A stretch of 64,000 nt of DNA from Myxococcota bacterium (GCA_022447545.1 JAKVBI010000017.1:69512-133511); one strand, 5' to 3'. Positions 46,671 through 52,152 are shown, counted from the stretch's first letter. The notes: a model not told the origin generated them from the letters alone. Translations and numbers: made by a program.

Positions 46671-47123
46671 CTATCGAGTCCAATCGTCGGGCGCCTGCCC
46701 GTCGTTGACGTCGGAATGAACAGCCGCGGCGGACACCTGTTCAACGTGAACGGTTACAGTGACACGTTCGTCGGCGGGGCCGTCGAATGGGTAGTCATCT
46801 TGTCCCATGTACTTCACCGCGATTGAATTGATGAAGCTTCGGTCCGTGTCGTCCTCCAGAGTGGCGCGCCCGCGGATCTCGAGATAGCGCCAGATGTTTG
46901 ACGGGTCGGGAATCGAAAGTGAGATTCGATCGTCGAAACGCAGGTTGCGGTACTTCTTGCGCGACTTGGTGATGCTGAACCGAATGTGTTCTCCATCCCA
47001 GATGAGACAGACCGGGTGATTGGACATCATTCCGTCGGGGCGCATGGTTGCGACGTGGGGAAAACATTTGCCCTCGAGAATGTCCATGTGGCTTGCCGGG
47101 ATCTCGGAATATGCCTGTGCCAT
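46671..47123 (-). CDS. pyridoxamine-5'-phosphate-oxidase (PPOX) family flavin/deazaflavin-binding protein
   Basis: 150 aa from ATG 47123. PHVATMRPDGMMSNHPVCLIWDGEHIRFSITKSRKKYRNL is typical of the PPOX split-barrel family. The 281-aa track ORF is a 5' extension into the upstream gene. Confidence 0.7.
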   Translation of the reverse strand: MAQAYSEIPASHMDILEGKCFPHVATMRPDGMMSNHPVCLIWDGEHIRFSITKSRKKYRNLRFDDRISLSIPDPSNIWRYLEIRGRATLEDDTDRSFINSIAVKYMGQDDYPFDGPADERVTVTVHVEQVSAAAVHSDVNDGQAPDDWTR

Positions 47124-47163
47124 GGGTCCTCTTTCGGTACTGGGTGGTATTGATCCGTAGGAC

Positions 47164-48354
47164 TCAACTCGTTCGCGACAGGATGAATCGCTCCCGGTAT
47201 TCGCGGAAATCTGCGGCCAGTTGGTCTTCGTTGAAGCCGAATTTCTCCATGCTGTACTCGTGCGGTGGCCGGTTTTCGCGACGGTTTTCCTGTGACCACC
47301 GGAGGACCTCCGCTTCCGCCTCGCTGGAGAGAGTACGGTTCGTCGCTTCGAGGATCTTTCGAACCTGGCCCACCGGGTCCGTGGCGACGTCCTTGTACCA
47401 GATGTCGACGAAGCGATCGGGGTAGCGATCGTTGCGCATTTCCAGGGCGTGGCGAAGCGCATGTTTCCAGTTGCTCCCCCAGACCCTTCCCACCTGGTGA
47501 GGGTCGGGTTCGTCACTGGCCAGCTGCCAGAGAAACAGTTGCAGGCTGCAGATCGATGGGATGGTTTCGAGGGCGTCGCGGTGGGTCTGAACGATTCGTG
47601 TGTCGGGGAAAGCCTCCAGGAGCACTTCGACGACGCCCAGATGGAAGGGAGCCTTGAGGACCCAGGAACTCGCCTCTTGCCCCGCGGCGCGCTTCTGCCA
47701 CTGCAGGAACCGCAACAAGGTCTTCAGGTATTCATACGCCTGGGTGCGGTCCTGCTCCCGGACCCACCGTCCAAATTCCGGCACGTTGGCATGAGATTCT
47801 GGCATCCACGACAGGAAGGTGTTCTCCAGCAGCATGATCTCTTCATCCGGACCTTCTGCGTCCCAGGGGTGTACGGTGGCGAGTTCGGGTACTGCTTCCA
47901 GGAGTTGGCGGACCTCTTCTTTTGCTGCGGGAATTCGTCCGTCGTCTTTCGTCCAGTCGTTTTCCGGAAATGGGGCTGGGTAGCGGCACTCGTACCAAAG
48001 CACCGCGTACGTATCCGGGTCGCTGGCCAATAGCCGGTGGAGCATGGTCGTTCCCGTGCGGGGCAACCCACAGACAACCACCGGCACGTGGAGTTCTTCA
48101 TCGTGAATCTCCGGGTGGCGGGTCAGCCAGTCTTCCAGGCTCAGGCGGTTGAGTAGCAGGCCGATGGTGCGTTCGCGCTGGGCTGCCCGCCCGTTTTCGT
48201 TGAGATTTGCCTCGCTCTCGTAGGCGTCGAGCATGCGTCGCATCGGTTCCTGGAAGGACTCGTCACCGAAGTTCTCCAGGCCACAGCGCTCACGCGCTTC
48301 GGCAATGATGGAATCCGCGTCCAAGCTTTGCGGATCGAAATTGGTCTGGCCCAA
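47164..48354 (-). CDS. sulfotransferase family protein
   Basis: 5'-phosphosulfate-binding loop GLPRTGTTMLHRLL. 396 aa. Confidence 0.8.
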   Translation of the reverse strand: MGQTNFDPQSLDADSIIAEARERCGLENFGDESFQEPMRRMLDAYESEANLNENGRAAQRERTIGLLLNRLSLEDWLTRHPEIHDEELHVPVVVCGLPRTGTTMLHRLLASDPDTYAVLWYECRYPAPFPENDWTKDDGRIPAAKEEVRQLLEAVPELATVHPWDAEGPDEEIMLLENTFLSWMPESHANVPEFGRWVREQDRTQAYEYLKTLLRFLQWQKRAAGQEASSWVLKAPFHLGVVEVLLEAFPDTRIVQTHRDALETIPSICSLQLFLWQLASDEPDPHQVGRVWGSNWKHALRHALEMRNDRYPDRFVDIWYKDVATDPVGQVRKILEATNRTLSSEAEAEVLRWSQENRRENRPPHEYSMEKFGFNEDQLAADFREYRERFILSRTS

Positions 48355-48464: not shown

Positions 48465-49346
48465 TCAGAGTTCGGAGGCTGCAGGGATGATCTCGCGAGC
48501 GAACTGGGAGAGGCTGCTCCCCTGGTAGAGGTCCGGCAGGTTGACGATGGCATGTTGTACGCCGGCCCCGGCCAGATTCTTCAGATGGGTGATCGCTCCC
48601 CGGGGGCTTTGGCCGCCGGGGGAAAGGTCGATGGTCGAAAGCGTGGTGCGTTCGATATCGTCGTAGGTTCGATCGTATTCTTCGCAATGTCGCCGGAGAA
48701 TCTCCAATTTTGAGCGGATGCCATCCACCCCGACATAGTCGAATAGATTGCAGGCGTCTGCGTATTTCGCGACGAGACGGAGTGTTTTTCGCTCCCCCAA
48801 ACCGCCGATGAGGATGCGGGGGCGAGGATGGGAGATCGGTGCGGGTACCGACAATGTTTCTGCCAGTCGATAGTGTTTTCCTGTGAAGGGGCCGTTTTTT
48901 CTGGACCACATTTGCTGCACGATTTGAAGGGTCTCCTCTAATCGTTCGAAGCGTTCGTCGAGGGGCGGGAACGGGATTCCGAGTCCACGGTGTTCTCGTT
49001 CGAACCAGGCCGCACCGATTCCAAGGATGGCGCGCCCTCCAGATAGGACGTCGAGAGTGGTGGCGGTCTTGGCCAGGATGCCAGGGTGGCGATAGGTCAC
49101 GCCCGTGACGAGTGTGCCGAGGCTCACCCGCTCGGTCATTGCGCTGAGATAGGAGAGGGTGGAGTAGCCCTCGAGCATCTCTTGCTCGGCGGGGCCGATG
49201 AAATCGATTTGGAAAAAGTGATCCATGACCCACAAACTCGCAAAGCCTGAATCTTCGGCTCGGCGCGCTACGTCGGCCAATCGCTGGCGCAGAGTCGCGG
49301 GTTCCTCTCCTGTGGTGAAACTTGGAATTTGTAGACCGATGCGCAT
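48465..49346 (-). CDS. luciferase-like monooxygenase (LLM) class flavin/F420-dependent oxidoreductase
   Basis: The N-terminus MRIGLQIPSFT...FASLWVMDHFFQ is typical of the LLM class. 293 aa. Confidence 0.8.
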   Translation of the reverse strand: MRIGLQIPSFTTGEEPATLRQRLADVARRAEDSGFASLWVMDHFFQIDFIGPAEQEMLEGYSTLSYLSAMTERVSLGTLVTGVTYRHPGILAKTATTLDVLSGGRAILGIGAAWFEREHRGLGIPFPPLDERFERLEETLQIVQQMWSRKNGPFTGKHYRLAETLSVPAPISHPRPRILIGGLGERKTLRLVAKYADACNLFDYVGVDGIRSKLEILRRHCEEYDRTYDDIERTTLSTIDLSPGGQSPRGAITHLKNLAGAGVQHAIVNLPDLYQGSSLSQFAREIIPAASEL

Positions 49347-49504
49347 GCGGATCTCCTCGTGGCGCTAGTCAAGGGCCATGATAGTGTGGGGCACCCTAGA
49401 AGGGGCGGATTGGGGGCGAGGTCCGGTGGTTCGTGCGCCAGATTGACGGCCACGATGCGGGGCCGATGTGTGAAAATGCGGCCCGCGAGGGAGAAGAAGA
49501 AAAC

Positions 49505-50749
49505 ATGCGACTGGAATCGAGAGTTCTTCAATACGGTGGTGCGATGTACGACCAGGAGGAGATCGACGCGGTCATGGCTCAGTTGCATGCGCCCATGGGA
49601 CTCGTGCCTGGTGAAAAGGTCCGTGAGTTCGAGGGGCGGGTTTCGAGCTACATGGGGAAAGAGCATGGCGTGATGGTGAACTCCGGATCGTCGGCTCTAA
49701 TGGTGGCCATGAGGCTTGCTGATCTTCCGTTGGGCTCGGAGGTCGTGACTCCGGCCCTTACGTTTTCCTCGGATGTGGCCAGTATCTATCACGTGGGCTG
49801 CACGCCTGTTTTTATCGATTCCGGGCTCTCCGACTATCAGTTGTGCGTGGACCGCATCGAAGGAGTCCTGACAGAGAAAACTCGAGCGATCCTGATTCCG
49901 GACCTGGTAGGCGGAATCTGTGACTGGGATGTCGTGCGTGAAGTCGCAGACCGGCATGGTCTGTTCGTGATCCACGACAGCGCAGATACTCTGGGCGGAA
50001 AAATTCGTGGGCGGCCCACGGCAACTCGAGCAGATGTTTCAATCACGAGTTTCTCTCCACACCACATCATTACTGCTCTTGGTAACGGCGGCATGGTGTT
50101 CTTCGACGACGAACGTTTCCTCGACCGGGCCTTGGCGTTGCGTGCCTGGGGCCGATCTTCGGAGAAGTGGATGCATGGAACGCGACGGACGGACAGCGAC
50201 GGGCGTTTCCTAGAGGAACTTGATGGCGTCGAGTACGACGGTCTCTTCATTTTTGAGGAGAACGCGTACGGTTTCATTCCCAGTGAGTGCGGAGCGGCTT
50301 TTGGAATCGCTCAGATGAACAAAATCGACAAACTCTGGGAGTTGCGGGCCGAGCGCTTTCGGTGGCATACGGAATTTCTGGCACGGCACGAGGACAAATT
50401 CATTCTTCCAACCATCCTGCCTGAAACCGAAACCACCTGGCTCTGCTACCCGGTCCAATTGAGGCCCGAGACGGGTTGGAGTCGCCGCAAGCTGCAGATT
50501 CAACTCGAGGACTCTGGCATCGTGAGCCGAGTGATCTTTTCGGGCAACATTACTCGTCATCCAATGCTGGACGGCCATGAATACCGAGTGGATCCGCTAG
50601 GGCTCGCCAACTGCGATCAGATTATGGAGCACGGGATCATGTTGCCGTGCCATCCGACGTTGTCCCGAGAGGACTGCGAGTATCTCTATCAAGTCATTGG
50701 TGACTTCATCGATGCGAACGGGGAGGTCACGGTCGCCAATCGGGGGTGA
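49505..50749 (+). CDS. DegT/DnrJ/EryC1-family enzyme of the RfbH(E1)/ColD type (sugar 3-dehydratase-like; active-site Lys replaced by His)
   Basis: ATG 49505 after GGGAGAAG. GSSALMVAM and VIHDSADTLG (DxxD/H region). SFSPHHIITALGNGGMVF sits where aminotransferases have SFxxxKxxxxxxGGxV. The His codon is at 50063-50065. Confidence 0.7.
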   Translation: MRLESRVLQYGGAMYDQEEIDAVMAQLHAPMGLVPGEKVREFEGRVSSYMGKEHGVMVNSGSSALMVAMRLADLPLGSEVVTPALTFSSDVASIYHVGCTPVFIDSGLSDYQLCVDRIEGVLTEKTRAILIPDLVGGICDWDVVREVADRHGLFVIHDSADTLGGKIRGRPTATRADVSITSFSPHHIITALGNGGMVFFDDERFLDRALALRAWGRSSEKWMHGTRRTDSDGRFLEELDGVEYDGLFIFEENAYGFIPSECGAAFGIAQMNKIDKLWELRAERFRWHTEFLARHEDKFILPTILPETETTWLCYPVQLRPETGWSRRKLQIQLEDSGIVSRVIFSGNITRHPMLDGHEYRVDPLGLANCDQIMEHGIMLPCHPTLSREDCEYLYQVIGDFIDANGEVTVANRG

Positions 50750-50916
50750 GACCCGATCCGGTTCGTGTTTCCAGGTGTGGCTCGGGAACGATCGGATGGT
50801 TATCGGGAAACTGGAATTCTGCTGTAACGAACTCGTATGACTGGCAGTCTGCAATGGGTGCACTGGTCGAGTGTCCCGTCTTTTTTATTTCATCCATCTA
50901 TCTGGGAGATCCGAGT

Positions 50917-52152
50917 ATGTCCAATTCCAACAAACTCCTCGACGGCGTACGTGTCATCGAATCCAGCCTGCTCGGGCCTGGCCATGTCGCCACGTTCTTC
51001 GCCGATCTGGGTGCTGACGTGATCAAGGTCGAGCCGCCTGCCGGTGACTACATTCGGCAGATGACCTGGCCCATCGTTAACGGGGTCTCACTTCTACACC
51101 TGCATACCCATCGCGGAAAACGTAGCGTCGTTTTGAACCTGAAGACTTCCGAGGGGGTAGATCTCTACAAGGAACTCGTGGCCAATGCCGATGTGGTGGT
51201 GGAAGCCATGCGCCCCGGATCTCTCGCGAAGTTGGGTCTTGGCTACGAGGATCTGAAGGCGATCAACCCCCGGATCGTGTTCGCCACTCTTTCGGGTTAT
51301 GGGGCGACGGGTCCCTACAAGGACATGCCCAGCCATGGGATCGCCTACGACACCTGGTCAGGAATCGTTCAACCCATCGTAGACGATGAAGGGTTTTGTC
51401 GGATTCCACCGAACATGCCCAATGTGGGAATCAATGTGGGCCCCATGCTGGGAGCCATCGCGATCCTGGCCGGTGTCATTAAGGCCCGAGAGTCCGGGCA
51501 GGGCTGCGAGATGGAAATGGCTCAGTCCGATGCCTCGGCTTACATGGATTGGTACCGGATCGAGAGCGAGCGGGCGTATCTCAGGCCCGAAGATGAGGTA
51601 ACCGGAAACCCGGCGGACAATTACGAGCGGCGTCCGGCGGGTCTGGCCGGGATGTGGGGTGGTGTTCGTTATCAGGCCTACGAGGCCAGTGATGGGCACG
51701 TTTTGTTCATGGCATCCGAGCGCGCGTTTTGGAAAAACTTTTGTCAGGGAATCGACCGAATGGATCTGTTCGAGAAGTGGCCGGGTGAGCGGGTTGCCGA
51801 TCATGCGCGTGGCAATGTCGAACTCCAGAGGGAACTTCGGGAGATCTTCCGCACGCGGACTGTGAACGATTGGCTCACGTTCAGTAACGAACACAACACC
51901 ACGATCGCTACCTTTAATACACCTGCCAACATCGGGGACGATCCCCAGTTCAAAGCGCGGATGGACTTCCTTCCGATTGACGCTGTGGGCTGCGAGCAAC
52001 TGCCTTTGCCGGTCTTCGTAGGGGGTGAGGCGCTGCCTGTTCCTAGCATGGCGCCTACTGTGGGGGAACACACGGAAGAGGTTGTACGTGAGGTCCTCGG
52101 CCGTGATGACGCGGGCGTGGAATCTTTGCGCGAAAAGGGTGCGTTCGGCTGA
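50917..52152 (+). CDS. CaiB/BaiF family III CoA-transferase
   Basis: LLDGVRVIESSLLGPGHVATFFADLGADVIKVEPP is a typical N-terminus. 411 aa from ATG 50917. Confidence 0.85.
   Translation: MSNSNKLLDGVRVIESSLLGPGHVATFFADLGADVIKVEPPAGDYIRQMTWPIVNGVSLLHLHTHRGKRSVVLNLKTSEGVDLYKELVANADVVVEAMRPGSLAKLGLGYEDLKAINPRIVFATLSGYGATGPYKDMPSHGIAYDTWSGIVQPIVDDEGFCRIPPNMPNVGINVGPMLGAIAILAGVIKARESGQGCEMEMAQSDASAYMDWYRIESERAYLRPEDEVTGNPADNYERRPAGLAGMWGGVRYQAYEASDGHVLFMASERAFWKNFCQGIDRMDLFEKWPGERVADHARGNVELQRELREIFRTRTVNDWLTFSNEHNTTIATFNTPANIGDDPQFKARMDFLPIDAVGCEQLPLPVFVGGEALPVPSMAPTVGEHTEEVVREVLGRDDAGVESLREKGAFG

Follow-up and report, generated by a model that had tools for sequence, protein, structure and literature searches.

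Why should an enzyme built like a nucleotide-sugar 3-dehydratase be encoded where no deoxysugar pathway is to be found? The question is raised by P0001, a 414-residue protein encoded within a 64,000-nucleotide stretch of a Myxococcota genome (GCA_022447545.1, JAKVBI010000017.1:69512-133511), referred to here as the window. A sequence-only reading of this DNA had proposed that P0001 is a DegT-family enzyme related to RfbH (E1) and ColD, with His in place of the Lys that binds pyridoxal 5'-phosphate (PLP), and that it is stranded outside any deoxysugar gene cluster. Having followed up this proposal by alignment, phylogeny, structure prediction and analysis of related loci, we think that P0001 is probably (at a rough probability of 0.6) an active, dimeric dehydratase of the His type, dependent on pyridoxamine 5'-phosphate (PMP) and PLP, and a member of an orphan clade descended from enzymes that dehydrate nucleoside diphosphate (NDP)-hexoses at C3 and carry no iron-sulfur (Fe-S) cluster.

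The family assignment is secure. P0001 scores 247.2 bits against PF01041 (DegT/DnrJ/EryC1/StrS), for which the cut-off is 19.8, placing it in this fold type I family. Its top NCBIfam match is the RfbH equivalog NF011936, at 249.6 bits; this lies under the 423-bit cut-off, which no copy in the whole genome reaches. An AlphaFold2 model built from a 60-sequence alignment has a mean predicted local distance difference test (pLDDT) score of 95.9. The best match of this model among solved structures is E1 (3bcx), with a template-modelling (TM) score of 0.89, and the next matches include perosamine synthase and ColD at TM 0.82–0.85 (ColD, 0.83–0.85); ArnB is also matched, all scores falling within 0.8–0.9. 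The sequence comparison gives the same ranking. E1 (AscC/DdhC/RfbH of Yersinia pseudotuberculosis, the CDP-6-deoxy-L-threo-D-glycero-4-hexulose 3-dehydrase; 3bcx, 3bb8) is the best match, with an E value of 4e-46 and 160 bits, against 105 bits for ColD (WbdK of Escherichia coli O55, the GDP-4-keto-6-deoxy-D-mannose 3-dehydratase; 2gms, 2r0t, 3b8x, 3gr9). The suggestion that P0001 lies nearer to E1 than to ColD is thus upheld.

The block SFSPHHIITALGNGGMVF, which begins at residue 182, carries His187 in the column of the Schiff-base Lys, and the SFxxxK motif of the DegT sugar aminotransferases is accordingly absent from P0001. His187 pairs with His220 of E1 in a phmmer alignment to 3bcx, with Lys in the same column of the H220K mutant 3bb8; in a profile alignment, the column contains His188 of ColD, and K and N in the ColD mutants 2r0t and 3b8x. 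The register proposed from the sequence was therefore correct, and the concern that a Lys might prove to occupy the catalytic column falls away. His187 is kept in 120 of the 120 closest homologues, at 70–86% identity, which points to strong purifying selection. More broadly, the column holds His in 112 and Lys in three of the 115 full-length representatives of the 50%-identity clusters nearest the query. Across 60 diverse His-type sequences, His187 is invariant, as are S60, G61, D158, S182 and R342, and the preceding residue, His186, is F, Y or H among relatives. The substitution of His for Lys together with the conserved cofactor site (H187, D158, S182 and S60–S63) marks P0001 as a 3-dehydratase of the His type.

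The ligands of the [2Fe-2S] cluster in E1, which we take to be Cys193, Cys251, Cys253 and Cys261 (C-X57-C-X1-C-X7-C, a numbering consistent with the 3bcx alignment), have no counterparts in P0001, where phmmer places A160, S219, W222 and D230 in the four columns; the cluster-binding motif is missing. The Fe-S loop is free of Cys in the entire query clade. Among the 115 representatives, His occurs without the cysteine triad in 78 and with it in 34, the remaining three being those with Lys. E1 and SpnQ bind their [2Fe-2S] cluster through four cysteines, and ColD has no cluster (PMC8987622). Because all four cysteines of E1 are missing, P0001 would have no electron relay from E3 or a ferredoxin; on these residues, a reductive route of that type is excluded, and a hydrolytic, glutamate-recycled mechanism of the ColD type is likely. 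The ligand check advised by the sequence-only reading has thus yielded an E1-like sequence with an expected mechanism like that of ColD. Inteins occur in some homologues of both the E1 type and the Fe-S-free type (P0243, P0251 and P0133). In P0243 and P0251, the intein is inserted inside the Fe-S loop, after WGRDC or WGREC and before CWCAPG or CTCPPG, that is, within the cluster-binding motif itself.

With E1, P0001 shares the His for Lys, the S-F-x-P-x-H spacing, the WGR and GNxTR motifs and the long loop that follows WGR, but it differs in having neither the four cysteines, the rfbF/rfbG context, the Tyr of SFY, the Asn of GYN nor the Lys of YDxK. ColD resembles it in being His-type and Fe-S-free and is the likely model for its mechanism, in which the ene-amine is hydrolysed and PMP is regenerated with glutamate. 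ColD is, however, the more distant enzyme and has a shorter loop; it retains the Asn of GYN, where P0001 has Gly, and is encoded in a GDP-colitose cluster of which there is no equivalent here. By analogy with the two enzymes, PMP would be held by the SGSS turn, Asp158 and Ser182, residues whose conservation is observed, and its amine would form a ketimine with the carbonyl of the substrate. His187 would then take the C4' proton and the hydroxyl beside the carbonyl would leave, as in E1 and ColD, to give an ene-amine adduct. Hydrolysis of the adduct, as in ColD, would release a deoxy-ketone, ammonia and PLP, and an amino donor such as L-glutamate would recharge PLP to PMP.

To place P0001 in its family, a tree of 114 sequences rooted on three Lys-type rows was computed with FastTree, as a quick estimate in which support values are local only. 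The query groups with three clade members at a support of 100; the stem of this group is long, at 0.62 changes per column, and its tips are short. This clade, whose members are 69–86% identical to the query, occurs in metagenome-assembled genomes (MAGs) of Myxococcota, in Halieaceae and in MAGs of other Pseudomonadota. It joins, at a support of 99, a sister orphan clade (signature WGRRSE...FGSK) containing two paralogs from the same genome, a gene of Rhodococcus erythropolis pLRE138 and an Embleya gene. The resulting 13-row orphan group is nested, at a support of 95, within a group of Fe-S-free enzymes in which genes of Roseibium, Leisingera and Ensifer lie directly after rfbF-rfbG and before genes for a methyltransferase, a reductase and glycosyltransferases. 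Where proteins of this 95-supported group, or of the wider Fe-S-free clade around it, are long, they either carry inteins or are fused to a 4,6-dehydratase, an RmlC-like or an RmlD-like domain. Since the orphan group is nested among His-type enzymes linked to rfbF-rfbG or fused to NDP-sugar enzymes, its ancestry, as read from the tree, is among the Fe-S-free NDP-hexose 3-dehydratases. This is the outcome of the phylogenetic placement that had been called for.

The plasmid-borne enzymes of Roseibium, Leisingera and Ensifer, which are uncharacterised, are 41–43% identical to P0001 and likewise lack the Fe-S cysteines, but genes for glucose-1-phosphate cytidylyltransferase, CDP-glucose 4,6-dehydratase, a methyltransferase, a reductase and glycosyltransferases flank theirs, and they keep SFY, GYN and YDxK. 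The sister orphan clade, at 43–46% identity, is like the query clade in its non-glycan contexts; it differs in its neighbours (MFS transporter, VOC protein, TetR, LLM and Amidohydro_2 genes) and in keeping the Asn of GYN, Glu157 and Asn137. Its two members in the same genome as P0001 (C6:127460-128668, - strand, and C1:21654-22877, + strand; loci L047 and L048) are 42–44% identical to the query and are themselves His-type, Fe-S-free and RfbH-like. One paralog stands beside LLM oxidoreductase, PhoX-like and Amidohydro_2 genes. The C1 paralog lies between an unannotated 501-residue open reading frame (ORF), with an acyl-CoA dehydrogenase gene beyond it, and a gene for an MFS transporter, followed by one for a Cof-type HAD phosphatase; the longest ORF of the transporter overlaps the stop codon of the paralog by 4 nucleotides. 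Also near the C1 paralog (L048:4197-6695, - strand) is a gene for an 832-residue protein with a C-terminal RPE65/carotenoid-oxygenase domain (residues 401–830) and a 400-residue N-terminal part that has no Pfam match.

Within Myxococcota, the query clade was found in eight of 300 other sampled species genomes, all from one order. Given this and its presence in Halieaceae and other Pseudomonadota MAGs, the gene is probably accessory and horizontally moving. A fall in G+C content to 0.567 over positions 50001–52000, covering the 3' part of the gene and the gene that follows it, against 0.60–0.63 on either side, fits such a patchy distribution.

The clade was compared residue by residue (118 members) with 27 relatives from the sugar-linked branch, with 20 Fe-S types and with the sister clade. 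Residues at or close to invariance in the sugar-linked enzymes have been exchanged in the query clade (Table 1), and the replacements are fixed in 96–100% of its members. Those at the Tyr of SFY (to A or S in the sister clade), at residue 65 and at residue 90 are common to both orphan clades. One of the residues lost, the Asn of GYN, falls in the column of ColD Asn248, presumably a ligand contact. Arg342, by comparison, has been retained; it lies in the column of ColD Arg331, which we take to bind an anionic group of the substrate. The loss of residues that are nearly invariant in sugar-linked relatives suggests an altered substrate.

The surroundings of the gene were followed through related loci, 24 from genomes and 20 from metagenomes, whose DegT proteins are 69–86% identical to the query except in L070 (31%). 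Within two gene positions in 40 loci, the Pfam families encountered were SDR (11), MarR (8), Amidohydro_2 (4), chromate transporter (4), sulfatase (3) and KshA-type Rieske (2); no nucleotidyltransferase, glycosyltransferase or other glycan enzyme was found within the same distance. Queries with rfbF, rfbG, reductase, GT2, GT4, RmlB and Gmd were run by tblastn against 489 kb made up of 43 related loci, the window and the two paralog loci, and none gave a match adjoining the gene. The only matches were distant ones, to an extended SDR 6 kb away (L011) and, weakly, to a GT2-like gene 6 kb away (L030), and the positive controls, Roseibium and Ensifer, were detected by the same search. The proposed neighbourhood analysis thus returned varied neighbours, catabolic in type, and no adjoining gene of a sugar pathway.

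The tightest arrangement occurs on a Sediminihaliea chromosome (L024:10001-13994, OZ244944.1), where the DegT orthologue forms a three-gene unit with a KstD-family flavoprotein and a KshA_C-type Rieske oxygenase. The stop codon of the DegT gene overlaps the start of the KstD-like gene (TGATG), and the stop of the latter overlaps the start of the Rieske gene (ATGA). The flavoprotein scores 581 bits against the model for 3-ketosteroid delta-1-dehydrogenase, below its cut-off, and the genome has only four KstD-like and seven KshA_C-type Rieske genes. An SDR gene and a DUF3604 gene lie upstream of the unit and divergent from it. In another Halieaceae genome (L025), the DegT gene starts 2 nucleotides after genes for an Ltp2-like thiolase and a DUF35 protein; elsewhere the gene order is BVMO, DegT (L028) or MBL, DegT, SDR (L010), and regulators of the MarR, TetR or AraC type flank the gene in several lineages. 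These partners, being catabolic in type, give a hint as to the substrate. Two candidates for a constant partner were rejected: SDR genes lie within two genes in about a quarter of the loci but are only 28–33% identical between arrangements, and the Rieske proteins are 30–35% identical across lineages, with no copy near any paralog of the genome. As partner genes are not orthologous between lineages, what the gene is associated with would be one kind of pathway rather than any particular partner.

What, then, is the substrate? Genomic context and residue changes, taken together, argue against an NDP-4-keto-6-deoxyhexose, and the enzyme most likely does not use a CDP-, GDP- or dTDP-4-keto-6-deoxyhexose made, in the classical manner, by a linked pathway. 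If P0001 is the dehydratase described above, we lean slightly towards a different, non-nucleotide ketol, which may be a catabolic intermediate of alicyclic or steroid-like structure, and regard an NDP-sugar made by unlinked genes as the less probable of the two, at odds well short of even. That the gene is translationally coupled in Sediminihaliea to a KstD-like and a KshA-type gene, together with the loss of residues kept in the sugar-linked enzymes, leads us to a more specific proposal, offered tentatively and with the odds against it: the clade would represent the first His-type, PMP-dependent C–O cleavage outside nucleotide-sugar biosynthesis, a stand-alone, glutamate-driven ketol deoxygenase of alicyclic or steroid-like catabolism. 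The repurposed chemistry or unusual substrate suggested by the sequence-only reading is, to this extent, supported by the tree and by clade-specific residue loss, as a matter of inference. In a literature search for a characterised orphan member of the His type, none was found. A match to 'DegT50' proved to be a pesticide half-life term and unrelated, and Rv3402c of Mycobacterium tuberculosis was dropped as an orthologue, being an aminotransferase with biochemical support (PMC12910592).

Several observations weigh against a catabolic ketol. All His-type members that have been characterised biochemically use an NDP-4-keto-6-deoxy sugar as substrate (PMC8987622), so that homology alone favours a nucleotide sugar. 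P0001 retains the WGR and GNxxR motifs typical of sugar dehydratases. The clade has no conserved partner gene, the adjacent SDR and Rieske genes of different lineages being only 28–35% identical, and the CaiB, Amidohydro_2 and DUF3604 families seen around the gene are so expanded in this genome that the local context is weak evidence. Finally, RmlB (481 bits) and Gmd (440 bits) are encoded on other contigs, C2 and C8, and could supply NDP-sugar substrates.

The strongest of the alternatives, which we hold to be unlikely, is that P0001 is an ordinary NDP-hexose 3-dehydratase of the ColD type whose pathway genes are scattered, converting GDP-4-keto-6-deoxymannose or dTDP-4-keto-6-deoxyglucose, made through Gmd or RmlB, towards a 3,6-dideoxy sugar for a glycan. 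Besides the precedent of all characterised relatives and the presence of Gmd and RmlB in the genome, it can call on the nearest relatives with a labelled context, whose genes belong to CDP-sugar clusters or encode fusions with NDP-sugar enzymes, and on two GT-C glycosyltransferase genes 4–7 kb upstream in the window. The latter do not recur near the relatives, however, and in none of the 43 loci does a nucleotide-sugar or glycosyltransferase gene adjoin the DegT gene. This alternative would also have to accommodate the replacement of residues that are invariant in sugar-linked members, a long stem branch followed by tight conservation, regulators of ligand-responsive type (MarR, TetR, AraC) beside the gene, and the occurrence in a single genome of three such paralogs, none of them in a glycan setting and one directly before an MFS transporter gene.

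An improbable alternative is that P0001 acts mainly as an aminotransferase or deaminase that uses His where others use Lys, as is seen in SpnQ when PLP and glutamate are supplied, to interconvert the ketone and amine forms of a small molecule. SpnQ shows aminotransferase activity when its reductase is absent, but ColD and E1 show none under similar conditions, and the H220K variant of E1 transaminates only non-catalytically (PMC8987622). The fold and cofactor site of P0001 are intact, and a primary-amine oxidase gene is located about 5.5 kb from the orphan relative in Rhodococcus; against this, product release is normally slower once the Lys has been lost, and no amine-related partner recurs near the clade. 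Least probable is that P0001 is what remains of a sugar dehydratase, now catalytically dead or regulatory. At several positions that do not vary in active relatives it carries other residues, and no pathway context is present; but the replacements are themselves fixed at 96–100% in 118 members, identity stays at 69–86% across phyla, every cofactor and catalytic residue is kept, and the model is predicted with a pLDDT of 95.9.

Turning to the gene and its surroundings, a longer ORF could begin at GTG 49433, but the N-termini of relatives (MRL, MRI or MPL) coincide with ATG 49505 and a Shine–Dalgarno sequence, GAGGGAG, precedes it, and ATG 49505 is therefore the likely start. No sigma-70-like consensus was found in the intergenic region upstream. 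The neighbours named in the sequence-only reading, an LLM oxidoreductase and a CaiB CoA-transferase, are borne out by PF00296 and PF02515, with the start of the latter corrected. Its longest ORF runs from GTG 50746, overlapping the DegT stop codon; since this frame matches the Pfam domain only from residue 65 onwards and ATG 50917 has its own Shine–Dalgarno sequence, GGGAGA, the gene probably starts at the latter, leaving an AT-rich gap of 167 nucleotides after the DegT gene. Translational coupling of the two genes was accordingly rejected. The pairing is, moreover, not found in relatives, where the only CoA-transferase match is a weak one in L022, 29% identical and 2.5 kb from the gene.

Table 1. 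Features of the DegT-family gene, its product and its immediate surroundings. Positions count from the first nucleotide of the window; conservation labelled "60 sequences" refers to the alignment of diverse His-type enzymes.
Feature	Position	Strand	Evidence
His-type DegT-fold protein P0001, 414 residues	49505..50749	+	Open frame; PF01041; AlphaFold2 model; fold match to E1 3bcx
S60-G61-S62-S63, predicted cofactor phosphate-binding turn (SGSSA motif)	49682..49693	+	S60, G61 invariant and S62, S63 nearly invariant (60 sequences); aligns with E1 SGSSA; role from fold family
Leu65 for Asn of SGSSAN (N65L)			Clade replacement
Asp90 for Thr of FxTT (T90D)			Clade replacement
Gly137 for Asn of LGN (N137G)			Clade replacement
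His157 for Glu preceding the cofactor Asp (E157H)			Clade replacement
Asp158, predicted partner of the cofactor pyridine nitrogen	49976..49978	+	Invariant (60 sequences); aligns with E1 Asp191; role from fold type I enzymes
Ala160, at the position of E1 Cys193	49982..49984	+	HDSADTLG aligned with EDCCDALG
Ser182 of SFS motif, cofactor-site serine	50048..50050	+	Invariant (60 sequences)
Ser184 for Tyr of SFY	50054..50056	+	Tyr in 100% of sugar-linked and 95% of Fe-S types; Ser in 100% of clade; Ala in 78% of sister clade
His187 (CAC), Schiff-base Lys position, predicted general base/acid	50063..50065	+	Aligns with E1 His220 and ColD His188
Ser219...Asp230 loop (S219, W222, D230), equivalent of the E1 Cys251/Cys253/Cys261 loop, no Cys	50159..50194	+	phmmer against 3bcx
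Leu247 for Lys of YDxK	50243..50245	+	Lys in 93% of sugar-linked and 90% of Fe-S types; Leu in 97% of clade
Gly256 for Asn of GYN (ColD Asn248 column; chain residue 250, native 248)	50270..50272	+	Asn in 100% of sugar-linked, Fe-S and sister sets; Gly in 100% of clade
Arg342, invariant arginine	50528..50530	+	60 sequences; column of ColD chain residue 333, native 331
Divergent intergenic region, 158 nucleotides, LLM gene to DegT gene	49347..49504	.	Sequence reading; contains Shine–Dalgarno GAGGGAG
LLM-class oxidoreductase, F420-type subfamily, divergent upstream; context only	48465..49346	-	PF00296 158.6 bits; TIGR03560 305.9 bits against cut-off of 231.4
Family III (CaiB-type) CoA-transferase, revised start; context only, not a conserved partner	50917..52152	+	PF02515 258 bits; domain from residue 65 of long ORF

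Beyond the CoA-transferase gene lie an Amidohydro_2 gene, a gene for an FAD-binding dehydrogenase and a DUF3604 gene. None of the window neighbours recurs beside the DegT gene in the genome loci, where SDR, Amidohydro_2 and DUF3604 homologues are scattered within 10 kb. The 5.9-Mb genome holds about 80 copies of the CaiB family III CoA-transferase, about 125 of Amidohydro_2 and about 21 full-length copies of DUF3604, and these families were discounted as meaningful partners on that account. Many of the approximately 80 CoA-transferase matches are tandem or fused pairs in open frames of 800–900 residues, and DUF3604 is unmatched in all 14 control genomes. A PPOX gene further upstream (ORF listed at 46671-47516) scores, like the LLM gene, above the cut-off of an F420-dependent subfamily (TIGR03618, 97.7 against 79.05); this ORF overlaps a sulfotransferase gene and is probably shorter.

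The statement that no deoxysugar cluster lies in the window held for the window and also extends to the contig and the flanks of the gene in the 43 related loci. A search of contig C9 for a nucleotidyltransferase, a 4,6-dehydratase or an extended SDR found none. Genome-wide, rfbF and rfbG (TIGR02623 and TIGR02622) had no match above cut-off, and none at all on contig C9; E3 was not searched for. The genome search proposed in the sequence-only reading therefore ends with RmlB and Gmd, both on contigs other than that of the DegT gene. Nor is there a GDP-colitose context beside the gene, Gmd being confined to contig C8 and missing from the window and the related loci.

The known PMP enzymes of the His type (E1, ColD, SpnQ and a few others) form a small and well-studied group, all of whose members act on nucleotide-activated 4-keto-6-deoxy sugars. 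To these the present analysis adds a large clade, highly conserved and probably spread by horizontal transfer, and its sister, in which the catalytic residues have been kept; the clade has lost the Fe-S cluster, several residues invariant in the sugar-linked enzymes and any genomic link to glycan synthesis. Should its members prove to be ordinary sugar dehydratases, the names given to them automatically (aminotransferase; CDP-6-deoxy-D-xylo-4-hexulose-3-dehydrase) would still be corrected, and it would follow that genes for 3-deoxy sugars can be fully unlinked from their pathways. As a cultured host exists in Sediminihaliea albiluteola F7430, and the orthologue of this species is 71% identical to P0001, the question of the substrate can be tested. 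If the substrates are other ketols, deoxygenation dependent on vitamin B6 would be extended into catabolism, and the clade would offer a means, of interest for biocatalysis, of removing a hydroxyl beside a ketone with the cofactor only and no reductase.

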